Source: an uncultured Desulfobacteraceae bacterium
Lineage (GTDB): Bacteria > Desulfobacterota > DSM-4660 > Desulfatiglandales > Desulfatiglandaceae
DNA length: 24,476 nt
Reading direction: 5' to 3'
NCBI GenBank assembly: GCA_964438065.1
Contig: CAYTJI010000001.1
Span: 1-24,476, forward strand
The translations under genes were made by a program, and so were the position numbers. Numbering within the stretch: position 1 is the first letter of the stretch; every line of letters starts with the position of its first letter. Below the pieces are notes generated by a model. That model was not told the DNA's origin, did no database searches, and worked only from the letters and a program-made list of their open reading frames with translations. Shown here piece after piece: positions 3,953 to 24,476 of the stretch.

Positions 3953-4143
3953 AAGACCCCATGCCGGCCCGGCCTGAATCGGTCCCGCTTTCTCGTTCAC
4001 GGAATTTTCCGCCCGACCCCAAAAAACCACAGAGAGCATCCGGCTGTGTGGATATATGGTGCCGCTATTTCCTCTAACACACAATATATCGACAGAAATT
4101 CTCTGAAAAAATCGTCAACTGGTTCATTTTGCAGTTTTTTTTC

Positions 4144-4172
4144 TTGACAATGCAAGGATAAGAAAAGATAGT
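4144..4172 (+). promoter_or_regulatory. Putative sigma70 promoter of the dcw operon
   Basis: TTGACA (4144-4149), a 17-nt spacer, then GATAGT (4167-4172), preceded by a T-tract and lying just upstream of mraZ. Confidence 0.65.
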
Positions 4173-4207
4173 GTCACGAAGTGGATAATTGTGTCACAAA
4201 GTGTCAT
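4168..4207 (+). promoter_or_regulatory. Four MraZ-type operator boxes with 10-bp period
   Basis: GTGTCACGAA / GTGGATAATT / GTGTCACAAA / GTGTCAT at 4171, 4181, 4191 and 4201. They overlap the -10 and the transcription start region. MraZ is known to bind 10-bp-period GTG(G/T) repeats upstream of its own gene. Confidence 0.75.
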
Positions 4208-4219
4208 GGACCAGGATAT

Positions 4220-4672
4220 ATGATATTCAGAGGACGTTTCAAACACAACCTTGACGCCAAGGGCAGACTCGCCATCCCGGCGAGATACAAAGAGACCCTG
4301 GAAAAAAACGGCCAGGACTGTCTGGTTGTGACCAACCATGACACCGGGGATGATACGTGCCTTTGGGCCTTTCCAATGGACAAATGGCTCGAGATCGAGG
4401 AAAAGGCGGCCAGGCTCCCCCAGTTCAACCGTGCGGCTAACGTCTATATCCGGTTTTTTATCTCAGGCGCGGTCGAATGTCCACTGAAAAACGGGCGGAT
4501 CACGATACCCCCGGACCTGAGACAGATTGCGGGCCTGAAAAAAGAGGTTGTCCTCGTCGGCTCGGGAACAAAATTTGAAATCTGGGAGAAAGGCAAGTGG
4601 GAGAAGGAATTTGAACGTTCCAGGGAAAAATTTCCCGAGGCCAGTGAAGCACTTGAGGAGTTCGGCATATGA
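4220..4672 (+). CDS. mraZ: Division/cell wall cluster transcriptional repressor MraZ, 150 aa
   Basis: MIFRGRFKHNLDAKGRLAIP, GRITIPPDLR and VVLVGSGTKFEIW. ATG 4220 has an AGGA ribosome site. It is the first gene of the dcw cluster. Confidence 0.95.
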   Translation: MIFRGRFKHNLDAKGRLAIPARYKETLEKNGQDCLVVTNHDTGDDTCLWAFPMDKWLEIEEKAARLPQFNRAANVYIRFFISGAVECPLKNGRITIPPDLRQIAGLKKEVVLVGSGTKFEIWEKGKWEKEFERSREKFPEASEALEEFGI

Positions 4673-4724
4673 AGTCCCTGTAAACGCCAATCCTGCTTCT
4701 TTTGTCCTGCGGATGTGGAAACAC

Positions 4725-4964
4725 GAGACCTCTGAAAACTGACCGGTTTTGCGCCAAATCAAATCAAAAAGCCTGCACTGATAAGAAGGGGAAGGCCAAA
4801 TCACGCCATCGCGTGAATAACCGACTCAATATATTGAATATTTTGAAGATTATAAGTTGATCCCAACCTGTCTGGGTGCCGGCCTGTCCCGTCCGGACGG
4901 CAGACAGGCAACGCATAGGCAGGCGCCGTGTTGGTGCAAAAAGAGGTCGCTTTTCAAAGGTCTC
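4725..4964. mobile_element. MITE-like element A (240 bp) between mraZ and rsmH
   Basis: Terminal inverted repeats GAGACCTCTGAAAACTGACC (4725-4744) and GGTCGCTTTTCAAAGGTCTC (4945-4964) match at 17/20 and extend inward (TTTTGCGCCAA / TTGGTGCAAAA). There is no coding capacity and no clear target duplication. Confidence 0.7.
4867..4923. repeat. Doubly nested CCTG...CAGG hairpins inside element A
   Basis: The outer unit is CCTGTCTG...TAGGCAGG (4867-4923). The inner unit is CCTGTCCCGTCCGGACGGCAGACAGG (4883-4908), with a perfect 12-nt palindrome CCGTCCGGACGG at 4889-4900. Confidence 0.7.
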
Positions 4965-5029
4965 ATGCGGCAGTTCCATCAGGAGAGGCAATCCAAATCC
5001 ATTTTCAAGGTATCGCAGGGATTTCAGGT

Positions 5030-5971
5030 TTGGGATACCCACACCAGCCAGTTCTCGTCCATGAAGTCGTCCGGTATCTGTGCCACAAGGCAGATGGCAC
5101 ATACGTGGACGGCACGGTTGGACCGGGCGGGCACAGCGAGGCGATTGGTCGGAGTCTCACCGCAACGGGGCGTTTGATATGCCTGGACCGGGATCCGGAA
5201 GCTATCCGAATGGCCGGGGAAAGGCTGACCTTTCTTAAAAATCGTGTCAAACTGGTCCAGGCAAACTTTGCAGACCTGGATGACGTTCTTTCATCGCTGG
5301 GAATCCAGTCGGTTGACGGTGTTCTGCTGGACCTGGGTCTGTCTTCCTGGCAAATCGAGCACTCGGGCAGGGGATTCAGCTTCAACAGAGACGAACATAT
5401 TGACATGAGGATGGATCCGAACGATGAAACGACGGCATATGAACTCGTCAATGCCCTTTCCCTACAGGACATTGAAAGGATCTTGAAAGAATATGGTGAA
5501 GAAAAAAGAGCGGGCCGAATCGCAAGGGCTGTTGTCCGGGCACGGGCCAAAAAGCCTCTTGAAACATCCTCTCAGCTGGCAGATGTGATTCGGTCGGCAT
5601 TCCCATCGTCGCATCGATTCACAGCCAGGCATCCTGCGACAAGAACATTCCAGGCCTTCAGGATAGCCGTTAACAGGGAATTACAGAATATCGATATATT
5701 TCTGGATAAGATTCCATCTCTGATTTCAGCAGGAGGAAGGCTGGTCGTCATATCCTATCACTCACTTGAAGACAGGCGCTTCAAACAGACCATGATGCAC
5801 TGGGAAAGGACCTGCACCTGCCCACCGGATTTCCCCCGGTGCGTCTGCGGGAAGGTTCCTCTTTTCAGACGTCTGTTCAGGAAAGGGATTAAGGCGGGTA
5901 CCGAGGAAGTGCACAACAACCCCAGGGCGCGCAGCGCGGTTCTGAGAGCTGCGGAAAGGATTCAGCCATGA
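5030..5971 (+). CDS. rsmH: 16S rRNA (cytosine1402-N4)-methyltransferase RsmH (MraW), about 313 aa
   Basis: HQPVLVHEV, DGTVGPGGHS, LLDLGLSSWQ, RGFSF, DMRMD, HPATRTFQAFRIAVN, SYHSLEDR and NPRARSAVLR. The likely start is TTG 5030; the ORF-track start at 4928 lies inside element A. Confidence 0.95.
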   Translation: MGYPHQPVLVHEVVRYLCHKADGTYVDGTVGPGGHSEAIGRSLTATGRLICLDRDPEAIRMAGERLTFLKNRVKLVQANFADLDDVLSSLGIQSVDGVLLDLGLSSWQIEHSGRGFSFNRDEHIDMRMDPNDETTAYELVNALSLQDIERILKEYGEEKRAGRIARAVVRARAKKPLETSSQLADVIRSAFPSSHRFTARHPATRTFQAFRIAVNRELQNIDIFLDKIPSLISAGGRLVVISYHSLEDRRFKQTMMHWERTCTCPPDFPRCVCGKVPLFRRLFRKGIKAGTEEVHNNPRARSAVLRAAERIQP

Positions 5972-8376: not shown

Positions 8377-9894
8377 ATGCGCCTGAAATCACTGCTCACC
8401 GGTATTTCGACCTCGGGCCCGGCCAACACGCCTGATCCGGAAATCAAAGGCCTGGCCTGTGATTCCCGGAAGGTTCGACCGGGATTTCTGTTTATCGCCC
8501 TGAAAGGGACATTACGGGACGGTCACGACTTTATTGAAGACGCCGTGCGAAACGGTGCCAGTGCAGTGGTGGGAGAATCATTTACAGGAACAGTCCCTGT
8601 TGCTGAGAATATCCCAACCTTTCAGGTCCCTGATTCCCGCGTTGCTCTGGCCCAACTGGCCTTGAATTTCTACGGACAGCCGTTCAGAAACATGAATCTG
8701 ATCGGGATTACCGGCACGAACGGGAAAACCACGACAAGCTACCTGCTGGAATCCATTCTGCTCACGGCCGGATCCAGACCCGGCGTTATCGGGACCATCA
8801 GTTATCGCGCACCCGGAATCACATGGCCCGCACCGCTAACGACTCCCGATTCCCTGGAGTTGATACGGATTCTTCGCAGCATGGCCGATACCGGGGTCTC
8901 CGACGTCGTCATGGAGGTCTCATCTCATGCGCTGGATCAGAAAAGGATCACGGGCTGCCCGTTCCGGACTGCGGTCTTCACCAATCTCTCCAGGGACCAC
9001 CTTGACTATCATGGCTCCATGTCGGCATATTTCGAGGCCAAAAGCAGGCTCTTCCGCGAACTCAGGTCCGAAGGAGACCGTAATGATACAAAGGCGGTGA
9101 TCAACGCGGATGATCCGTCAGCAGGAAAACTGGCCCGGCTCACTCCGGTCCCGGTCGTGACCTACGGCCTTGAGAGGGACTGTAATGTCCGGGCGGAACA
9201 GGTCGTGTCAGGCAAGTCCGGGGTGACCGCAAGGCTCATCGCGCCCGGCGGCCGGACAGAAGTCCGCTCGTCATTGATCGGCGGATTCAATATATACAAT
9301 ATACTTGCGGCTGCTGCCGCGGCCTTGTGTCTGGGCATATCCCTGGAAACCATCGCATACGGGGTCTCCCGCCTCCAAGGAGTGCCGGGCCGTCTGGAAC
9401 GGGTGCCGAACCGGCGGTCCCTGACAATTATCGTGGATTACGCCCACACACCGGACGCCCTGCTCAAGGCCCTGACTGCGCTCAGGCCGCTTGCAGGAGA
9501 AGGCCGGCTCATCACCGTGTTCGGTTGCGGTGGGGACCGGGACAGGGGCAAACGCCGGGAAATGGGACAAGTCGCCGCACAGCACAGTGACCTGGTGATT
9601 CTCACCTCCGACAACCCCCGAACCGAAGACCCGGAGTCGATCATCGCACAGATTGAACCGGGGATGCGGGATAAGGACATGGAAAAACTTCCGGGCCTTC
9701 CCGGCAGACGGTCGGCCGTTACAGGCTATTTCGTCGAACCGGACCGTGCCGAAGCGATTCAAAAGGCGGTTGAAGAAGCGGATCAGAAAGACATCATCCT
9801 GATCGCAGGAAAAGGTCACGAAGACTATCAGATCATCGGGACGCAAAAAAGGCATTTCGACGACCGCGAAGTGGCGGCAAAGGCCGCCTCGTGA
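8377..9894 (+). CDS. murE: UDP-MurNAc-L-Ala-D-Glu:meso-diaminopimelate ligase
   Basis: GITGTNGKTT, LTTPD, EVSSHALDQ, TNLSRDHLDYH, VDYAHTPD, FGCGGDRD, DNPR (meso-DAP specificity motif) and GKGHEDYQ. Confidence 0.96.
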   Translation: MRLKSLLTGISTSGPANTPDPEIKGLACDSRKVRPGFLFIALKGTLRDGHDFIEDAVRNGASAVVGESFTGTVPVAENIPTFQVPDSRVALAQLALNFYGQPFRNMNLIGITGTNGKTTTSYLLESILLTAGSRPGVIGTISYRAPGITWPAPLTTPDSLELIRILRSMADTGVSDVVMEVSSHALDQKRITGCPFRTAVFTNLSRDHLDYHGSMSAYFEAKSRLFRELRSEGDRNDTKAVINADDPSAGKLARLTPVPVVTYGLERDCNVRAEQVVSGKSGVTARLIAPGGRTEVRSSLIGGFNIYNILAAAAAALCLGISLETIAYGVSRLQGVPGRLERVPNRRSLTIIVDYAHTPDALLKALTALRPLAGEGRLITVFGCGGDRDRGKRREMGQVAAQHSDLVILTSDNPRTEDPESIIAQIEPGMRDKDMEKLPGLPGRRSAVTGYFVEPDRAEAIQKAVEEADQKDIILIAGKGHEDYQIIGTQKRHFDDREVAAKAAS

Positions 9895-11389: not shown

Positions 11390-12469
11390 ATGTTCTACAA
11401 ACTGATCTATGCGTTCCACGCGGATTTGTCCTGGCTGAATGTGTTCCGGTACATTACCTTCCGGGCTATTCTGGCCTCCCTGACTGCCCTGGTGATCTGT
11501 TTCATCTTCGGCAGATGGGCGATCAACAAACTCCGCGCCATGCAGATCGGACAATTCGTCCGGGATGACGGACCACCGGAGCACAAATCCAAGGAAGGGA
11601 CTCCGACCATGGGAGGATGCCTGATTCTGCCCGCGATTGTCTTTTCCGCACTCCTGTGGGCAGACCCGGCCAATGTCTATGTGTGGATTGTAATATTTGT
11701 CACGCTGTCCTTCGGAGCCATCGGGTTTGCCGACGATTACCTGAAAGTAACCAGGAAAAACAGTCGCGGTCTGAGACCCCTTTCCAAATTTTCTCTGCAG
11801 ATTCTGGCGGCCCTGATCGTCGCCCTGGCACTCTATTATTACCCCGGTTATAATCTGCATCTGAACGTGCCGTTTTTCAAAAAGATTTCCCCGGACCTCG
11901 GCTGGGGGTATATCCCGGTGATCATCTTCATCATTGTCGGCGCATCCAATGCCGTAAATCTGACAGACGGCCTGGACGGCCTTGCAATCAGCCCGGTCAT
12001 TGTGGCATTCGGGAGTTACCTGGTTTTTGCCTACCTGTCAGGGCATGTCAAGATCGCCGGGTACCTCCAGATCCCGTATGTGTCGGGCGCGGGAGAAATC
12101 TCCATTATCTGTGGCGCCGCAGCGGGTGCGGGGCTGGGCTTTCTGTGGTACAACGCCTACCCTGCGGAGATCTTCATGGGGGATGTCGGCTCCCTGGGCC
12201 TTGGCGCGGTCCTGGGAACGGTCGCCATCATTACCAAACAGGAAATCGTGCTGATTCTGGTGGGCGGCCTGTTTGTTTTTGAAGCGCTCTCCGTCATATT
12301 CCAGGTCGCCTACTTCAAATTTACAGGCGGTCAGCGTATCTTTCGGATGGCCCCCATACACCATCATTTCGAGCTGAAAGGATGGCCAGAGCCCAAGGTC
12401 ATCGTCCGGTTCTGGATCATTGCCATCATCCTGGCACTGTTTTCCTTTACCACACTCAAACTGAGGTAG
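11390..12469 (+). CDS. mraY: Phospho-MurNAc-pentapeptide transferase
   Basis: A polytopic membrane protein with [28 protein letters not shown] and MAPIHHHFE. Confidence 0.97.
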
Positions 12470-12477
12470 CAGGTCCA

Positions 12478-13854
12478 ATGGCGCAACACCGGCATCCGCA
12501 ATTTTACGGGAGGAAAATCGTCGTGGCAGGGCTGGGTATTTCCGGACTATGGACCGCCAGGTATCTCGCGGCCCATGGCGCAGACGTAACGGTCAGTGAA
12601 AAAAGACCGGAGATGGACCTGGACCCGGGCATGTGCAGGGAAATCCGTGCCCTCGGCGTGGTCCTGGAGGCTGGCGGACACACGATGAAAACATTCATGG
12701 AGGCCGACATGATCATTGTCAGTCCGGGGGTCCCGACTGATATACCGATCCTTCACGCCGCACGGGAAAAAGGCATCCAGGTAATCGGCGAACTGGAACT
12801 GGCCGGCCGGCTCGTCCAGGCCCCTGTCATCGCCATCACCGGCACGAACGGAAAATCAACGGTTACGGCGGCCCTGAGCCGGATGCTGGAGCTGGCCGGC
12901 CTGAATGTTTTCGTGGGGGGAAACATCGGCACCCCTCTGATGGCCCTTGCCGCAGGCGGTGAAAAGCCGGACTACGCGGTCGTGGAGGTCAGCAGCTTTC
13001 AGCTAGACACGACCGTAACATTCTGTCCCCGTATTTCCGTAATCCTGAACATCACGCCCGATCACCTGGACCGGTACCGGGGTTACGACGACTATGTCCG
13101 GTCAAAGTTGAAAATATTCAGCAATCAGAAATCCGGGCATCATCTGGTCCTGAACGATGATGATCAAAGGCTGGCCGGGATCAACCCGTCATCCGGTGTT
13201 TCCGTGCTTCGTTACGGGACAGCGCAGAAGCCGGGCCGGCACGCATATGTCAAGAACGGGGAAATCCTGGCCCGTACCGATGACCGGCAGCCGGACAGAT
13301 TCCCGGTCGCGTCGTATAAGTTGCCGGGAAAACACAACCGCCAGAATCTGATGGCCGTCATCCTTGCCTGCCGGCTGATCGGGATCGACCCTGCTGTAAT
13401 CCGGCGGCATATCGGCAACCTCCGGGGACTTCCGCACCGGCTGGAATATGTGGGGGAAGTGGAGGGAGTGACCTATTACGATGATTCCAAGGCCACCAAC
13501 GTGGATGCGGCCGTCAGGGCGGTCGAGAGTTTCGACCGGCCCCTGATCCTCATCGCCGGAGGCAGGCACAAGGGCGCAGACTACTCCCCGCTGGTGCGCG
13601 CCTGCAAAAAACAAGTGCGAAAGGCTGTTTTCCTGGGAGAGGCAAAGGATCTGCTGTGTGCTGCCTTCGATGGGTGCATCGCCTTTTCCACGGCCCGGGA
13701 CATGGCTGAGGCCGTGGCCCTGGCCCGACAAAGTGCCCAACGGGGAGACACGGTCCTGCTTTCCCCGGCATGTGCCAGTTTCGACATGTTTTCTGATTAT
13801 AGAGACAGGGGCAGGGTATTCAAATCAATCGTTGCGGGATTGAGCCGTGGCTGA
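12478..13854 (+). CDS. murD: UDP-MurNAc-L-Ala:D-glutamate ligase, 458 aa
   Basis: VAGLGISG, ITGTNGKST, GGNIG, EVSSFQL, LNITPDHLDRY, DDSKATN and LSPACASFDMF. The start is set at ATG 12478, just after the mraY stop. Confidence 0.96.
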   Translation: MAQHRHPQFYGRKIVVAGLGISGLWTARYLAAHGADVTVSEKRPEMDLDPGMCREIRALGVVLEAGGHTMKTFMEADMIIVSPGVPTDIPILHAAREKGIQVIGELELAGRLVQAPVIAITGTNGKSTVTAALSRMLELAGLNVFVGGNIGTPLMALAAGGEKPDYAVVEVSSFQLDTTVTFCPRISVILNITPDHLDRYRGYDDYVRSKLKIFSNQKSGHHLVLNDDDQRLAGINPSSGVSVLRYGTAQKPGRHAYVKNGEILARTDDRQPDRFPVASYKLPGKHNRQNLMAVILACRLIGIDPAVIRRHIGNLRGLPHRLEYVGEVEGVTYYDDSKATNVDAAVRAVESFDRPLILIAGGRHKGADYSPLVRACKKQVRKAVFLGEAKDLLCAAFDGCIAFSTARDMAEAVALARQSAQRGDTVLLSPACASFDMFSDYRDRGRVFKSIVAGLSRG

Positions 13855-14950
13855 AAAACACGCAAAAGCTTCCGGATATGATTACATGATCCTTGTCCCG
13901 GTCCTTGTCCTGATCGGGCTGGGTCTGGTAATCGTGTACAGCGCCAGCAGCCACCTGGCGGAACATCGTCTGGCGGACAGTTCATTTTATCTGAAACGCC
14001 AGGCCCTGTTCTGTGCCGCGGGTCTGCTTCTCATGGTCCTGGCCAAAAAGATCCCATGCACCCTCTATTCCAAAATGGTCTATCCCCTGCTTGTCCTCAG
14101 TTTCTGTCTTCTTGGCATTCTGTTTGTACCGGGCATCGGACACAAAGTGGGAGGCGCATCCCGGTGGATCCGGATGAGCGGTTTTTCTTTCCAGCCATCC
14201 GAATTCGTAAAATTCACCCTGGCCGTTTACATGGCATATTCCATGTCGAAAAAGGCATCCGACATGGGTCGGCTGAGAACCGGCCTTGCACACCATCTTG
14301 TGGTGGCAGGCCTTTTTATCGTGCTCATTCTTCTGGAGCCGGATCTTGGAACCTCGCTGATTATCGGCGGCTGGCTCATGATCATGCTGTTTGTCGGTGG
14401 CGTCCGTCTGTGGCAGATCGGCTCGGTACTGGCCATCTCCTCGGTGGTCGTGTGGCAGCTCATCGCCCGCGCCGATTACCGGATGCACAGGTGGCTGGCT
14501 TTTTTGAATCCCTGGGACGATCCACAGGGCATCGGTTTTCAGATCATCCATTCCTTCCTGGCATTCGGATCAGGAGGACTGTTCGGCGCGGGGCCGGGGG
14601 CCGGGAAGCAGAAACTTTTCTACCTGCCTGAGCCCCACACGGATTTCGCTCTGTCCGTGGCAGGTGAGGAACTGGGTTTTGTCGGGGTTGCGTTCATTGT
14701 CCTGTTGTTCGGCCTGTTGATCATGCGCGGGATCAAGGTCGCCCTGAATGCCCGTGATCTGTACAGCTCGTACCTTGCCCTGGGAATTATCTGCCTGATC
14801 GGGCTTCAGGCAATCGTCAACATGGGTGTGGTCCTGGGGTTGCTCCCGACAAAAGGCCTGACGCTGCCGTTTATCAGTTACGGGGGATCCGCCCTGATTC
14901 TGAATCTGACGGGCATCGGCGTGCTGCTGAACATTTCATCAAAAACATGA
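13847..14950 (+). CDS. ftsW: SEDS peptidoglycan glycosyltransferase FtsW
   Basis: VYSAS, GASRWI, QPSEFVK, EPDLG, LPEPHTDF and GLTLPFISYGGS. The GTG start overlaps the murD end. Confidence 0.95.
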   Translation: MAEKHAKASGYDYMILVPVLVLIGLGLVIVYSASSHLAEHRLADSSFYLKRQALFCAAGLLLMVLAKKIPCTLYSKMVYPLLVLSFCLLGILFVPGIGHKVGGASRWIRMSGFSFQPSEFVKFTLAVYMAYSMSKKASDMGRLRTGLAHHLVVAGLFIVLILLEPDLGTSLIIGGWLMIMLFVGGVRLWQIGSVLAISSVVVWQLIARADYRMHRWLAFLNPWDDPQGIGFQIIHSFLAFGSGGLFGAGPGAGKQKLFYLPEPHTDFALSVAGEELGFVGVAFIVLLFGLLIMRGIKVALNARDLYSSYLALGIICLIGLQAIVNMGVVLGLLPTKGLTLPFISYGGSALILNLTGIGVLLNISSKT

Positions 14951-14972
14951 CACCCAAAACCCGCATAAATTG

Positions 14973-15011
14973 TTGCAGAAAAGACGTTATGTTTTTAATA
15001 TCAGTAAGTTA
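14973..15011 (+). promoter_or_regulatory. Possible internal promoter with overlapping IHF consensus site before murG
   Basis: TTGCAG (14973-14978), N17, TAATAT (14996-15001). TATCAGTAAGTTA (14999-15011) fits the IHF consensus WATCARNNNNTTR. Both lie in a 99-bp AT-rich gap. Confidence 0.35.
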
Positions 15012-15049
15012 TTGGATTTCTGGGCTTGCAGGATTTAGGTGAAAGGCAA

Positions 15050-16162
15050 ATGAATCATACGGCCGGAACCTTTCGGGCGATCATAGCGGGCGGCGGTACA
15101 GGCGGTCACCTTTTTCCCGGAATTGCCGTGGCCAGAGAAATTGAAAAGCGGTTTGATCACGCCGAGGTCCTTTTTGTGACTGGCCTGCGAAAAATGGAAT
15201 CGGAAATTCTGTCCCGCTATGGATACCATACCGTTTCCATCCGGGTGGAGGGGATAAAAGGCCGGGGCTGGAAAAAGGGGCTGAAGGTAATTTCCGGACT
15301 TCCCGGCAGCTTTCTGCAGTCAGTCTCTTTGATCAAGGCCTTTTCACCGGTCTTTGTTCTCGGCGTTGGAGGCTATGCTTCGGGTCCGGTGTGCCTGGCC
15401 GCCAGGATGATGGGGGTTCCGACAGCGATCCATGAACAAAACGCCGTTCCGGGTCTTGCCAACCGTCTGCTGTCCCGGTTTGTGGACTGTGTGTTCATTT
15501 CGTTCCCGGAAAGCCGGCCCTGGTTGAAAGGCCGCCGGCATGTCCTGAGCGGAACGCCGGTACGGGAAGAGCTTTTTTCCGGTATCCCCGCAAAGAAACC
15601 GGACTCATCGCGGTTTACCGTCCTGGTGGTGGGTGGCAGCCAGGGCGCCATGGCCGTTAACAGGGCCTTTGCCGAGGCCCTGGAGATCCTGGAATCGGAA
15701 GGCAGACATCCCCATGCGATCCACCAGACAGGAGAGACGGATTTTGCGAGGGTTCAGGAAGACTACCGCAAACGCGGCATTCGGGCGGAGCTTCACCCCT
15801 TTATCCGGGATATGGCCGCGGCATATCACCGCGCGGATCTCGTTGTCGGCCGGGCGGGGGCATCCACGATCTTCGAGCTCGCGGCACTGGGAAAACCCTC
15901 TGTTCTGATCCCCTACCCGTTCGCAACGCATGGGCATCAGGAAATGAATGCCCGCTGTCTGGTTCAGGCGGGGGCCGCGGAAATGATCCGGCAGGAAGAA
16001 CTGACCGGCGAGTGCCTGGCAAAGGTCCTGACCGAATTCATGAACAACCCGGACAGGCTGAAAACCATGGGGATCCGGGCCCTGACGATCGGCCGAAAAG
16101 ACGCGGCAGAGGTCATTGTGGATCATCTGCTGGAAACAGCGCTCGCAAAAAAACGGACCTGA
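15050..16162 (+). CDS. murG: Undecaprenyl-PP-MurNAc-pentapeptide GlcNAc transferase, 370 aa
   Basis: GGGTGGHLFPG, GVGGYASGP, HEQN, GGSQGA, RAGAST and HQEMNA. ATG 15050 follows AAGG. Confidence 0.96.
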   Translation: MNHTAGTFRAIIAGGGTGGHLFPGIAVAREIEKRFDHAEVLFVTGLRKMESEILSRYGYHTVSIRVEGIKGRGWKKGLKVISGLPGSFLQSVSLIKAFSPVFVLGVGGYASGPVCLAARMMGVPTAIHEQNAVPGLANRLLSRFVDCVFISFPESRPWLKGRRHVLSGTPVREELFSGIPAKKPDSSRFTVLVVGGSQGAMAVNRAFAEALEILESEGRHPHAIHQTGETDFARVQEDYRKRGIRAELHPFIRDMAAAYHRADLVVGRAGASTIFELAALGKPSVLIPYPFATHGHQEMNARCLVQAGAAEMIRQEELTGECLAKVLTEFMNNPDRLKTMGIRALTIGRKDAAEVIVDHLLETALAKKRT

Positions 16163-16173
16163 ACACAGCGGAT

Positions 16174-16339
16174 AACATTTTACCAAAAACCTGCAAGCGT
16201 CGAGTTTGCCTTGCACCTGCCTGCTGCAGGCAGGTGCAAGGCGGCAAGGGCGCAGACGTACGACGATACTTCAAGTCCTTGCCAACGCCGTCCCGCCTCC
16301 AGGCGGGATAAAATCGGCACTCCCGGAGGGTAAACTATT
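16174..16339. mobile_element. MITE-like element B (about 166 bp) between murG and murC, with nested palindromes
   Basis: Imperfect ends AACATTTTACC / GGTAAACTATT (9/11). It has the core CAAGGCG...CAACGCCG seen in the other elements, a perfect 17+1+17 palindrome at 16208-16242 and an 8-bp-arm hairpin TCCCGCCT-CC-AGGCGGGA at 16291-16308. Confidence 0.5.
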
Positions 16340-16396
16340 TTCAAAAATCCGGTCTAAACCGGACATTTCGGGATGTACCGCTGTTGATGAGAAAAA

Positions 16397-20913: not shown

Positions 20914-22218
20914 ATGAAATTCGAGATTGTGGATGAAAAAAAGATATACAACAACAAGACACGGATCAAGGTCGTGGGTGTCGGCGGCGGCGGCGGAAAC
21001 GCCGTCAACAACATGATCGACACAAAGCTGGCGGGCGTGGACTTTATCGTCGCCAATACGGATGCGCAGGATCTGGACAGATCCCTGTGCTCTGACCGGA
21101 TCCAGCTGGGGCCCTCCGTAACCATGGGGCTCGGCGCCGGCGCGGACCCGGAAATCGGCAGGGCGTCTGCCGAAGAAAGTATCGAGGAAATCAGAAATAT
21201 TGTGGACGGCTCGGATATGGTGTTCATTACCGCCGGCATGGGAGGCGGGACAGGCACCGGCGCATCCCCTGTGATCGCACGGCAGTGCAGGGAAAGCGGC
21301 GCACTGACGGTCGCCGTGGTCACAAAGCCTTTCAGTTTCGAAGGGGATAAGCGGATGGAAAAGGCCATGAAAGGCATCGATAGCCTCCGGGATGAGGTGG
21401 ACAGCCTGATCATTATCCCCAATGAGCGACTCAAGGCCCTCAGCGGAAAAGCCACCACCTTCAAGGATCTGATCGCCCGCGCGGACGAAGTACTGCTCCA
21501 TGCCGTCAAGGGCATTTCCGACCTCATCATGAGCAGCGGTTTCATCAACCTGGATTTTGCAGACGTCAAGAAGGTGATGGAGAAAATGGGAAGCGCCATT
21601 ATGGGGATGGGAAACGCCAGCGGGGAAAACAGGGCACTGGAAGCCGCGCAGATGGCGATCAACAGTCCCCTTCTGGAAGACATTTCCATTGACAGTGCCA
21701 AAGGCCTGCTGATGAACATCACCGGACCATCCGACATGACCATGGAAGAGATCGACGCGGCCTCCAATTACATCAAAGGGGAAGTTAACCAGAACGCCGA
21801 AATCTTCTGGGGAGTCGTATTCGATGACAGCAACAGTAACGAAATCAAGGTGACCGTGATTGCCACAGGGATAAACGGAAACGGGGACGGTAGAAGACTG
21901 GAATCGAAAGGCCTTGATCCCGAACAGAACCGGAAATCCGGAAATTACAGCAATGTGGTCAATATCGGCGAAAAGATCAGGGACCTGAGCCCGGAAGAAG
22001 CCGAAGCAAACTGGATAATCAAAAAAAAGGGAGGCGAGGTCATTCCGGAGTATCTTGAAATCCCTACCTTTCAGAGAAAAGGCTCAAATGGCGGCATTGT
22101 CCATGACAGTCCCGAGCCCCCGATCGGAAAGAAAAAAAGAGGGCTTTTCGGCCGGCTGAATATCGGCTTCAAGGACAATCTGGATTATCCGACTTTTCTC
22201 AGATTGAAAACGGACTAG
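20914..22218 (+). CDS. ftsZ: Cell division protein FtsZ with extended C-terminal tail, 434 aa
   Basis: GVGGGGGN, NTDAQ, the tubulin signature GMGGGTGTG, INLDFADV and terminal LDYPTFLR. Confidence 0.98.
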   Translation: MKFEIVDEKKIYNNKTRIKVVGVGGGGGNAVNNMIDTKLAGVDFIVANTDAQDLDRSLCSDRIQLGPSVTMGLGAGADPEIGRASAEESIEEIRNIVDGSDMVFITAGMGGGTGTGASPVIARQCRESGALTVAVVTKPFSFEGDKRMEKAMKGIDSLRDEVDSLIIIPNERLKALSGKATTFKDLIARADEVLLHAVKGISDLIMSSGFINLDFADVKKVMEKMGSAIMGMGNASGENRALEAAQMAINSPLLEDISIDSAKGLLMNITGPSDMTMEEIDAASNYIKGEVNQNAEIFWGVVFDDSNSNEIKVTVIATGINGNGDGRRLESKGLDPEQNRKSGNYSNVVNIGEKIRDLSPEEAEANWIIKKKGGEVIPEYLEIPTFQRKGSNGGIVHDSPEPPIGKKKRGLFGRLNIGFKDNLDYPTFLRLKTD

Positions 22219-22229
22219 CGGTTCACCGG

Positions 22230-22264
22230 CTCTGTTGAGGCATGGCCTCCAGAGATTAATTTGT
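22230..22264 (+). terminator. Possible intrinsic terminator of the dcw operon
   Basis: CTCTG-TT-GAGGC-ATG-GCCTC-CAGAG (10 bp with a 2-nt bulge, 22230-22254) begins 12 nt after the ftsZ stop. The tail ATTAATTTGT is weak. Confidence 0.35.
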
Positions 22265-22334
22265 CCATCCACTGAATTCAGGGCTCGGACGAGTTTCCAA
22301 CCCGGAAATGCGAAATTTTTTACGAAATCCAGGG

Positions 22335-22518
22335 AGTGTCCATCCATAAATGAGGATTTTTATTCAAGATCAAGGCGTGCGAAAAAAATAACCGCCCCGG
22401 TGAAATGGAGACACAACGGCATTTCACGGGACAGGCAGTCATCGTAGTTGATATTCCGAGGATTATTTTTTTGCGCAACGCGGATATTGGGCAAAACGGC
22501 CATTCATGCATGGAAACT
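22335..22518. mobile_element. MITE-like element C (184 bp) between ftsZ and the radical SAM gene
   Basis: Ends AGTGTCCATCCATAAATG / CATTCATGCATGGAAACT match at 15/18. Internal arms GCGTGCGAAAAAAATAACC / GGATTATTTTTTTGCGCAACGC are present. The interior is homologous to element A. Confidence 0.7.
22383..22437 (+). repeat. 55-nt direct repeat, copy 1
   Basis: AAAAAATAACCGCCCCGGTGAAATGGAGACACAACGGCATTTCACGGGACAGGCA is identical to 24422-24476. It contains the hairpin GTGAAATG...CATTTCAC. Confidence 0.95.
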
Positions 22519-22564: not shown

Positions 22565-24325
22565 GTGTCAAGTGATATCATCTCCCTTTACCGTTCCCGG
22601 CTGGCCCGGGAAAAGGGCACTGTTGTAAAAGATCGAGGGGGAAAACTGGCGGTGGCGCTGGCCTACCCCAATACGTACCGCCTCGGCATGTCGAACCTGG
22701 GATACCAGTATGTCTATCATCTCCTTAACAGACGGCCGGATGTGGTCGCAGAGCGCGTTTTTCTGCCTGAATCACAGGAAATGGCCCTTTATCTTCAGTC
22801 AGGGAAGCCCCTGCTTTCTCTTGAATCACAGGCGCCGGTCCACGATTTCGATGTTGTCGCGTTTTCTCTCTCCTTTGAAAATGACTACCTCCATGTCCTG
22901 AAAATCCTGGAATTGGCAAAAATTCCTCTTTTGGCGGAAAAGCGCTCCAAAAGCTGTCCTTATGTGATGGCCGGCGGCGTTACGACCTTTATGAACCCGG
23001 AGCCCCTGGCCCCTTTCATGGACTTCTTCCTTCCGGGGGAGGCGGAAGCCGTTCTGGACGAATTTCTGGACCATTTCCTGTCATATGGGAACGTCCATCG
23101 CTCCAGAAGCGATATTCTCCGGGACCTCTGTAGAAATATGAGCAGCGTGTATGTGCCCTCCTTCTACCATACGGAATACCACAGGGACGGCACCATCCGG
23201 TCCTTTCTGCCTACACGGGACCATGTTCCGGAAAGGATAAAAATTGCCCGTTCAACGGCTGAACAGATCCCTGCCTCCGGCATCACAACCCCGGACACCG
23301 AGTTCGGAGGCAAGGTCCTGATTGAACTCGGCAGAGGATGTACCCGTTCCTGCCGTTTCTGCGCGGCGGGATACGTGTACCGACCGCCCAGAATACCGGA
23401 TGAAACCACAACCCGTCTGGCGATTGAAGAGGCACTGCAAATTTCCCGCAATCTGGGTCTGATTGCCCCCGCCATTTCGGATATCCCCGGTATTGAAGAC
23501 CTGGCATCCCTGATCCTGGATAATGGCGGACGCTTTTCGGTCTCTTCCCTGAGGGCGGACAGCCTGACCCCGCGTCTCCTGGATCACTTGCACCGGGCCG
23601 GTCAGCGGACCATCACCATTGCGCCCGAGGCCGGCTCGGAGAGGCTCAGAAGAGTCATCAACAAACATCTGACGCGCAGCCAGATTGCCGATGCCGCAAA
23701 GCGACTGGCCTGCACGCACGCCTTTGCCGTCCGGCTGTATTTCCTTGTCGGCCTTCCGACCGAAACCCGTCAGGACATCCGGGAAATACTCGAACTGGTC
23801 AAGACGGTCAAACATCACATGATCAGGGAATCGGCGCCGCGGGGGACCATCGGGCAGATCCGGCTGAGTGTGAACTGTTTTGTACCGAAACCCTTCACGC
23901 CGTTTCAGTGGGTCCCTCTGGAGCAGATATCTTCTCTCAAGGAAAAACAGAAATGGCTGAAAAAAAACCTTGGCAGGGAAGGCGGAGTGCGGATAAACTT
24001 TGACGTCCCCAAATGGGCCTATGTCCAGGCCCTGCTTTCCATGGGGGACAGACGGGTATCTGCCATGCTCCTCCGGGCGCACGAGCAGAACGGGAATTGG
24101 ACGCAGGCCCTTCGCTTTTCCGACGTGAATCCGGATTTCTTTGTCTATCGACCCAGGGGAACGGATGAAATACTTCCCTGGGACTTTGTGGATCATGGAA
24201 TCTCAAAAAAACATCTGCTCAGGGAATATGCCCTCGCCATCCGGGGGGAACAGTCCGACATCTGCCATGTGGGCGAATGCTACCGTTGCGGCGTGTGTGT
24301 CCCGGCGAAACCGGACGGCCGCTGA
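22565..24325 (+). CDS. Uncharacterised radical SAM protein with N-terminal B12-binding-like domain (TIGR03960-like), 586 aa
   Basis: CxxxCxxC (CTRSCRFC, 23339-23362), YPNTYRLGMSNLG, FSLSFENDY, TIAPEAGSERLRRVINK, FVPKPFTPFQW and a C-terminal CHVGECYRCGVC. The family name is from recalled motifs, not a search. Confidence 0.85.
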   Translation: MSSDIISLYRSRLAREKGTVVKDRGGKLAVALAYPNTYRLGMSNLGYQYVYHLLNRRPDVVAERVFLPESQEMALYLQSGKPLLSLESQAPVHDFDVVAFSLSFENDYLHVLKILELAKIPLLAEKRSKSCPYVMAGGVTTFMNPEPLAPFMDFFLPGEAEAVLDEFLDHFLSYGNVHRSRSDILRDLCRNMSSVYVPSFYHTEYHRDGTIRSFLPTRDHVPERIKIARSTAEQIPASGITTPDTEFGGKVLIELGRGCTRSCRFCAAGYVYRPPRIPDETTTRLAIEEALQISRNLGLIAPAISDIPGIEDLASLILDNGGRFSVSSLRADSLTPRLLDHLHRAGQRTITIAPEAGSERLRRVINKHLTRSQIADAAKRLACTHAFAVRLYFLVGLPTETRQDIREILELVKTVKHHMIRESAPRGTIGQIRLSVNCFVPKPFTPFQWVPLEQISSLKEKQKWLKKNLGREGGVRINFDVPKWAYVQALLSMGDRRVSAMLLRAHEQNGNWTQALRFSDVNPDFFVYRPRGTDEILPWDFVDHGISKKHLLREYALAIRGEQSDICHVGECYRCGVCVPAKPDGR

Positions 24326-24351: not shown

Positions 24352-24476
24352 GAGTCCTTTGAACAACGACCGTTTTGTGCCGAATCAAGTCGAAGATCCC
24401 GGACCTTGAGCGGGGCGCGCGAAAAAATAACCGCCCCGGTGAAATGGAGACACAACGGCATTTCACGGGACAGGCA
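24352..24476. mobile_element. MITE-like element D, left part (runs off the window edge)
   Basis: It starts GAGTCCTTTGAACAACGACCGTTTTGTGCCGAATCAA, which aligns with the left end of element A (GAGACCTCTGAAAACTGACCGGTTTTGCGCCAAATCAA). It continues into the interior shared with element C. Confidence 0.65.
24422..24476 (+). repeat. 55-nt direct repeat, copy 2 (may extend beyond the window)
   Basis: Identical to 22383-22437. The preceding GGCGCGCG versus GGCGTGCGA extends the similarity. Confidence 0.95.

Follow-up and report, generated by a model that had tools for sequence, protein, structure and literature searches.

The window analysed here, a stretch of 24,476 nucleotides from an uncultured Desulfobacteraceae bacterium, holds the dcw cluster of cell-division and cell-wall genes. 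Its 5′ part encodes an AcrB-type pump and, on the minus strand, a metallo-beta-lactamase-fold protein, followed by mraZ (4181-4672) and rsmH; then come ftsL, ftsI, murE, murF, mraY, murD, ftsW, murG, murC, murB, ftsQ and ftsA, and the 3′ part carries ftsZ (20914-22218) and a radical-SAM gene (22565-24325). Four repeat copies, all placed on the plus strand, are the subject of this analysis: element A (4725-4964) between mraZ and rsmH, element B (16182-16350) between murG and murC, element C (22336-22518) between ftsZ and the radical-SAM gene, and element D (24352-24476), which is cut by the window end. DNA of the same species, 99.8-99.9% identical to the window, is found in the NCBI MAG GCA_053938745.1, in the JGI sample 3300013103 (Ga0164318) and in several ENA and Logan assemblies, the samples holding it including ERZ27227322, ERZ2433807, ERZ23491052/60, SRR21418560 and SRR32938001/09. 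Because these independent assemblies agree with the window at A, B, C and D, where none of them shows an indel, the segments described below are not assembly artefacts. The lengths of the four elements agree in at least 10 assemblies of the species, with no polymorphism between filled and empty states, and therefore nothing indicates current activity. Of ten other assemblies, five end within element A (window 4885-4986), and the window end itself coincides exactly with the end of a 55-nt exact repeat of C and D (24422-24476); in practical terms, such repeats fragment metagenome assemblies within a core operon.

Homologues bear names such as "Deltaproteobacteria bacterium" and "uncultured Desulfobacterium sp.", by which the organism appears to be deltaproteobacterial (Desulfobacterota-like). 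Outside its own species, the closest relatives of this organism are 76-77% identical in FtsW, with 77% for the nearest. In the nearest of them, L013, mraZ and rsmH lie only 11 nt apart and element A is absent, so that element A represents an insertion in the lineage of the window. Apart from this absence, comparison of the spacers at the orthologous locus was uninformative, given the 76-77% identity of FtsW and the presence of an unrelated MITE in the spacers of L013. That MITE is 250-300 nt long, has a 33-nt perfect inverted repeat and is found in the murG-murC, ftsQ-ftsA and ftsZ-radical-SAM spacers (12314-12608, 15856-16146 and 18694-18956 of L013), its copies being 87-93% identical. The strains L013 and L014 differ by tandem duplications of 14 nt and 25 nt and by a 63-nt in-frame indel in murD (L013:7342, 9684-9746 and 11091); none of these indels is a hairpin, the one in murD being an in-frame deletion. 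Within the species of the window, the NCBI MAG carries an 86-nt insertion at window position 4016/4017 (L080:3963-4048) that is absent from the window and from L081. It includes a fragment of the right end of a MITE, is flanked by an imperfect 10-11-nt direct repeat and changes the 5′ end of the metallo-beta-lactamase-fold gene.

Elements A, C and D are copies of one genuine MITE family. A degenerate pattern built from the positions common to the three, TATTNNGARGATTATN{9,10}CAACGCNG, was scanned over metagenome contigs and gave 64 matches in 63 loci, about 6 of them attributable to chance, and a profile search with nhmmer recovered about 75 family copies, with two or three copies on several contigs. 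The unadorned MITE measures about 142 nt and folds as a single long hairpin (z -4.7 in L023), and compensatory changes were seen in 12 of the 31 pairs of the consensus hairpin. Terminal inverted repeats are present in all subfamilies, the sequence of the repeat varying from one subfamily to the next. Target duplications of 4-6 bp flank family members, for example TAGTTA (L054, L067), TAGCGA (L056) and TAACTC (L023), with 4 bp in the GAGCC subfamily; none is visible at the window copies A, C and D themselves. A scan of genome contigs with the 19-mer TTGCGCAACGCGGATATTG of C and D was discarded, as it returned only nine chance matches in unrelated phyla, the match in L004 being coding sequence.

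Each of the three window copies has its own affinities. Copy A, of the A-type subfamily, begins with GAGACCTCTGAAAA and ends with TTTTCAAAGGTCTC; it matches the core of the family, its ends match those of L064, L069 and L050b, and it folds with a z of -4.3. Its left arm contains about 45 additional nt (4768-4812); these do not resemble a hairpin and have the direct repeat GCCAAATCA on either side. Copy C (nhmmer E 1.6e-27) is of the S1a subfamily and resembles the S1a copies of Ga0164318, a sample that also contains the window species. Copy D, completed by L001 (13430-13637), is 90% identical to C across 141 nt and is chimeric, with a left arm of A type and a right arm of S1a type, as in C. 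The same combination of arms was found in L068:1596-1819. In both D and L068 the two arms come from different subfamilies, and therefore the two ends no longer match. L038 is also chimeric, with the fusion at CAGGCAGG. Since chimeric copies exist, recombination between MITE copies is real, and it also shuffles the modules described below. A 28-nt perfect palindrome at L053:2521-2548 (z -5.0) consists of two S1 MITE terminal repeats only, and looks like a MITE with a deleted interior, that is, a collapsed MITE.

Element A contains a 57-nt GC-rich insert, element X (4867-4923, CCTGTCTGGGTGCCGGCCTGTCCCGTCCGGACGGCAGACAGGCAACGCATAGGCAGG), which lies on the minus strand, reversed relative to the MITE. 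Excising it restores ..GATCCCAA^CGCCGTG.., the family consensus being ..CCCAACGC..; the rejoining of CAA^CGC on removal of 4867-4923, first noticed in the window, thus reproduces the junction of the whole family. The site is empty in all other MITE copies (about 70). The 57-mer folds at -14.4 kcal/mol (z -2.1), and its reverse complement aligns end to end with a 55-nt insert at L029:5097-5151, with 44 identities in 58 columns and a global score of 55, compared with a maximum of 28 among 2000 dinucleotide shuffles. The L029 insert lies in the left arm of its MITE, directly after alignment column 42, and the window insert in the right arm, directly before column 107. Because columns 42 and 107 (alignment A2) form a predicted pair, the two sites are exact mirror images of each other. 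Both inserts have the same orientation relative to their respective MITE arm, and inspection of the sequences showed that their flanks are dissimilar. We propose that the 57-mer is a small non-coding GC-rich palindromic element of about 55-57 nt that was inserted secondarily into one arm of the MITE.

The internal organization of element X is less clear. It includes a 26-nt hairpin (4883-4908, plus strand; -7.0 kcal/mol, z -2.5) headed by CCTGTCCCG, a head common to the site-III units described below, and the 10-mer at 4883 is, as the first-pass annotation had stated, identical to the start of the reverse strand of the 41-mers of C and D (CCTGTCCCGT). That annotation also expected an intact outer hairpin to remain once this inner hairpin was removed. 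The remaining 31-mer is not more stable than shuffled sequences (-4.6 kcal/mol, z -0.41, 60 of 200 shuffles), and therefore nesting inside the window is not established by structure alone. An alternative division of the insert gives a 42-nt sub-unit (4867-4908, plus strand; CCTGTCTG...CAGACAGG), in which an 8-bp outer stem surrounds the inner hairpin, and which aligns with a 40-nt part of the L029 insert with a local score of 41 (maximum 31 in 2000 shuffles). Where the internal parts begin and end is ambiguous, since CAACGC also occurs within the insert. The case for one hairpin inserted in another at this particular place is weak.

Other positions of the MITE family are also occupied by small modules in some copies and empty in others. 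At site III (AATAACCG^CAGGCATAT), C and D carry identical 41-mers (CCCCGG...CGGGACAGG, type 1; 22395-22435 and 24434-24474, plus strand; fold z -3.2), the copy in D lying within the 55-nt stretch that is identical to C. This site is filled in about 18 distinct loci and empty in about 43, these counts being approximate. Because empty sites exist, here and at the site of X, the segments are insertions. The first-pass annotation had proposed such secondary insertions into MITEs, and the family indeed comprises filled and empty copies, as opposed to copies all carrying hairpins at the same positions. Site-III units always start with CCCC(G/A) and end with CGGG(A/G)CAGG, their interiors differ and covary, and they are 41 nt (type 1), 50 nt (type 2), 23, 32, 33 or 36 nt long, with in addition a 57-nt composite. 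Their stem is paired in 90% of cells and has three covarying pairs, with a score reached by none of 500 shuffles; these results show that pairing is kept through compensatory changes, and the covariation of the stem extends across the unit types. All site-III units occupy a single junction in a single orientation. The type of hairpin follows the contig or sample, not the MITE subfamily: L054 has t5 and t5' in two subfamilies, and L057 has t4 and t5'.

Site II (ATCAAG^GCGTGCG) holds a 25-26-nt insert in D (TCGAAGATCCCGGACCTTGAGCGGG, 25 nt, 24390-24414, plus strand), L021, L053, L055 and L068, and is empty in C and in most other copies, and site I holds TCCCGCCATGGC(GG) in five copies. All pairwise combinations of presence or absence at sites I and II and of site-III type occur. 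The kinds of module found in the family are thus CCTGTCCCG...CGGGG units of 23-50 nt, GTCCCGCC..GGCGGGAT mini-hairpins, a TTAA-flanked 22-nt hairpin, the 25-nt site-II insert and element X. Type 1, type 2, the site-I module, the TTAA unit and X are more stably folded than shuffled sequences (z -2 to -5.4); t3, t5, the site-II insert and a 24-mer of L029 are not. No target duplication was seen for any of the CCTG-type units, in agreement with what had been observed in the window. The class of inserts with CCTG ends defined by the first-pass annotation needs to be divided: the inserted units are real, but the label merges at least three types of unit with the palindrome of the B family. In the window, CCTGYC-N5-35-GRCAGG occurs 5 times with 0.19 expected, for a pattern that was defined after the fact; CCTGYC alone is over-represented (51 compared with 30 expected), and the 11-mer common to the units has an E of 0.08 within the window, which is borderline. 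In related loci, more than 15 inserted units have CCTGTCCCG as their head. In about 80 kb from the same or a close organism this sequence occurs about 15 times with about 1 expected, and all but about 3 of these occurrences are inside MITE copies.

Element B, of about 170 nt, belongs to a repeat family distinct from the MITE. BLAST found 7 related copies in contigs of Ga0164318, at most 95% identical, three of them in L021, two in L038 and one each in L049 and L070. A 35-nt perfect palindrome (16208-16242, fold z -6.5) contains the CCTGCCTGC-T-GCAGGCAGG hairpin that the first-pass annotation reported in element B. The hairpin is there, but it is not an insert into a MITE: it forms a constant module of this separate family, being present in 7 copies, with one deletion variant in L049 that lacks a segment of about 58 nt including the palindrome. 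A mini-hairpin, GTCCCGCC-TCCA-GGCGGGAT (16289-16308, fold z about -3.5), lies further along element B, and S1 MITE copies carry the same stem at site I, as an insert of 12-14 nt. The spacers of the dcw cluster contain fragments of further repeat families, at 14950-15040 (ftsW-murG) and at 22260-22335 (upstream of C); their counterparts in Ga0164318 contigs are the flanks of B-family copies and a third type of element.

Small related units were found at different sites and in different orientations, as the first-pass annotation had supposed. Besides element X in A and its counterpart in L029, the evidence comes mainly from the MITE copy L054:3180-3420, where the loop of a site-III unit holds a 24-nt unit, CCCTGTCCCGGTATTTTCACGGGG. 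This is the reversed counterpart of the 23-nt site-III unit of L031, with 18 of 21 aligned positions identical and a score of 27 compared with a shuffle maximum of 26. L054:3180-3420 is a genuine Russian doll, one unit within another, so that the insertion of hairpins into each other, which had been deduced from the window, finds its example in a related locus. In the same copy, the TTAA-flanked hairpin CCGCCAAAGTTCGGTGGCGG is present in both arms in direct orientation. The combination GTCCCGCC-N2-4-GGCGGGAT was found in three unrelated contexts, namely MITE site I, the B family (16289-16308) and another site in L022 (7752). These results show that the same unit recurs in either orientation and at sites that are mirror images or not homologous, and that nesting occurs.

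The first-pass annotation had suggested an HUH or RAYT-type enzyme as the agent of mobilization. A crude scan for the HUH...Y motif in all ORFs of 520 kb of related loci had a single candidate match, a 106-aa ORF in L067, and Pfam analysis of 10 ORFs adjoining the repeats found housekeeping families only and no transposase; no HUH/RAYT gene was recognised in these samples, which together are far too small to exclude a single-copy gene. The flanks of the units have no common target sequence, the left flanks being CCCAA, GCCGG, ATCAAG, GCCTG and GCAGGC. No convincing solo unit outside composite repeats was found in the about 80 kb from this organism or a close relative. The sole candidate, L027:249-300, is a CCTGT-tagged hairpin with a 10-bp stem inside a 199-aa ORF without Pfam match, and may be an in-frame insertion into a gene. 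Other solo candidates with a CCTG tag were dismissed as chance 9-mers in murE and ftsZ. The idea that inserts always lie in unpaired loops was downgraded to suggestive, because 53% of the junctions of the MITE helix touch an unpaired column anyway. Rfam gave no match at gathering thresholds; at E<=1 it returned noise only (Na+ riboswitch, snoU13 and GHRLOS, at 13-17 bits). A terminator and promoter scan of 4000-5500 detected no relevant site in or around element A.

The reading that we favour, with a probability of roughly 60%, is that the units are discrete, secondarily inserted modules that have been copied between places. Under this reading, modules of several kinds, 12-57 nt long, would come and go in the MITE family, each as a discrete unit and at one of a few fixed positions. 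The units would be non-autonomous, unable to move alone, and the agent that copies them would recognise a position or structure in the folded MITE and not the flanking sequence; the mirror-image sites of element X favour such recognition over that of a sequence. A trans-acting HUH-type enzyme acting on single-stranded DNA would be the best-fitting known chemistry because of the lack of target duplication, the layout of hairpin foot and unpaired tag, and the action of such enzymes on folded DNA. We regard the involvement of an HUH/RAYT-type enzyme specifically as a tentative suggestion that is rather unlikely. Recombination among MITE copies would afterwards reshuffle the modules, and enzyme-free palindrome dynamics probably contribute to size variation, as in the collapsed MITE of L053:2521-2548 and the 86-nt indel at 4016/4017. 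Going further, the units might represent a novel class of mobile hairpins of 23-57 nt in Desulfobacterota, with a CCTGT tag and a CCCG/CGGG foot, moved by an enzyme that acts, whichever the strand, at a structural position of extruded MITE hairpins and not at a given sequence. We put this forward as an unlikely speculation, and note that an enzyme of this kind would explain both the mirror-symmetric sites of one element and the presence of other units in loops.

The main rival is that a few ancient insertions into a master MITE were followed by inheritance, amplification and gene conversion or illegitimate recombination, without independent mobility of the units; the modules would have diverged under pressure to stay paired and spread together with the MITE. 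Much of the data is explained in this way. The single position and single orientation of the site-III units fit a single ancient insertion, their types are homologous with compensatory changes, the chimeric copies D, L068 and L038 indicate that recombination alone can spread modules, at least 10 assemblies of the species lack strain-level polymorphism, and the 520-kb motif scan and the Pfam analysis of 10 ORFs turned up no mobilising enzyme. What ancient insertion with inheritance and conversion does not account for is recurrence at non-homologous or mirror-image sites and in opposite orientation, as for X in A and L029 and for the t3-like unit reversed in L054b, or the TTAA hairpin in both arms and the three contexts of GTCCCGCC..GGCGGGAT. 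Moreover, similar types of hairpin occur in subfamilies whose flanks are, by eye, about 70% alike, which is low for homologous conversion. We hold this explanation to be possible, though unlikely. An origin without any enzyme, through template switching and palindrome growth within the long-hairpin MITE, or as collapsed remnants of larger nested palindromes, would draw on several local observations: the 28-nt collapsed palindrome of L053; the site-II insert of L021 and L053, which pairs with flanking MITE sequence (CCGGGATC/GATCCCGG); the type 1 unit, which resembles the 23-nt unit extended by an inverted duplicate of its TTTCA arm; the L049 copy of the B family, which resembles a deletion between the GCAAG..CG direct repeats flanking the palindrome; and the 86-nt indel of a MITE fragment between strains. 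However, the stems of most units are entirely internal and have no relation to the flanks, near-identical units at different sites require a donor copy, and the TTAA hairpins of the two arms are direct and not mirror-image copies. As a general account of the units it seems improbable.

Even less probable, in our view, is a functional role for the hairpins, as RNA or DNA structures that act, for instance, as attenuators, stabilise mRNA or bind proteins, and that were selected where they lie in the dcw operon and are not mobile. Element A does form part of the transcription unit of mraZ and rsmH, C and D immediately precede genes of the same strand, and the pairing of the units is conserved; yet the same units stand beside unrelated genes in many contigs, the hairpin is not followed by a T-run, the terminator scan predicted no site in A, Rfam offered no match and the nearest relative is wholly without element A. 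The most far-fetched alternative is that we have over-read chance, a long imperfect hairpin always resembling nested hairpins and CCTG/CAGG ends being coincidental in GC-rich DNA. The failure of the outer hairpin to reach significance on its own, the borderline E of the common 11-mer in the window and the general excess of CCTGYC speak for it. For the whole insert, chance is ruled out by the family-wide empty sites and by the end-to-end homology with the independent insert in L029.

For the spread of the smallest bacterial hairpin repeats, a question that arises for REPs and SDRs alike, the MITE family described here provides a natural experiment, with many near-identical "landing pads" that are filled or empty at defined positions, units in both orientations, and nesting. 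Should a structure-directed activity be responsible, a complete genome could reveal it and synthetic hairpins could serve to test it. Otherwise, the locus illustrates clearly how mosaic intergenic repeats are built up through recombination and the dynamics of palindromes.

Several known systems resemble the units in part. REPs carry an unpaired GTAG or CGTC tag at one end, occur within longer palindromic repeats and contribute to mosaic intergenic regions (PMC3733652, including section 7), and REP/REPIN elements are mobilised by RAYT tyrosine (HUH) transposases (PMC3733652; PMC3116915). The units are like REPs, which are extragenic palindromes of 20-40 nt, in having an unpaired tag at one end. 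Unlike in REPs, this conserved unpaired end is CCTGT (on the reverse strand) or ACAGG and not GTAG/CGTC: GTAG is absent from all displayed units, and CGTC occurs solely within the stem of 4883-4908. The interiors of the units are highly variable and their ends conserved, and the units are found almost only inside other repeats, which sets them apart from REPs. The crude scan of 520 kb of sampled loci did not find a RAYT gene. The SDRs of Nostocaceae are reportedly of about 21-27 nt, in some cases hairpin-forming, and are said to occur as insertions in each other as well as in MITEs, and to encode no enzyme. Among the cyanobacteria examined, SDR-like repeats were not found outside Nostocaceae (PMC5861425). 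The very small size of the units here and their nesting in each other and in MITEs (L054:3180-3420 and the MITE inserts) recall SDRs, a resemblance in behaviour that is not evidence of membership. They differ from SDRs in phylum and sequence, reach 57 nt and occupy a few fixed positions of one MITE family.

The BIMEs of enterobacteria and the ERIC and Correia elements are mosaic intergenic repeats of hairpin modules or MITEs in the form of long imperfect palindromes, with size variants that arise by internal indels at fixed sites. The repeats described here share the mosaic of hairpin modules and the long-hairpin MITE with internal size variants. They have no sequence relation to those elements, and their internal variants are recurrent small palindromes, mirror-sited and mutually nested. 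IS200/IS605 elements and PATEs make no target duplication, have subterminal hairpins at their ends and act on folded single-stranded DNA, and IS200/IS605-type elements insert 3′ of a fixed tetra- or pentanucleotide. Although the units also lack target duplications, their left flanks differ from one another and include no constant tetra- or pentanucleotide, and the sampled loci yielded no TnpA gene. To our knowledge, all known PATEs are far larger than the units. A literature search on MITEs in Desulfobacterota or on internal insertions in ERIC elements yielded nothing usable. The units here differ from REPs and SDRs in their tag, in their variable interiors, in being restricted to positions of a single MITE family that are fixed and mirror-symmetric, and in the phylum.
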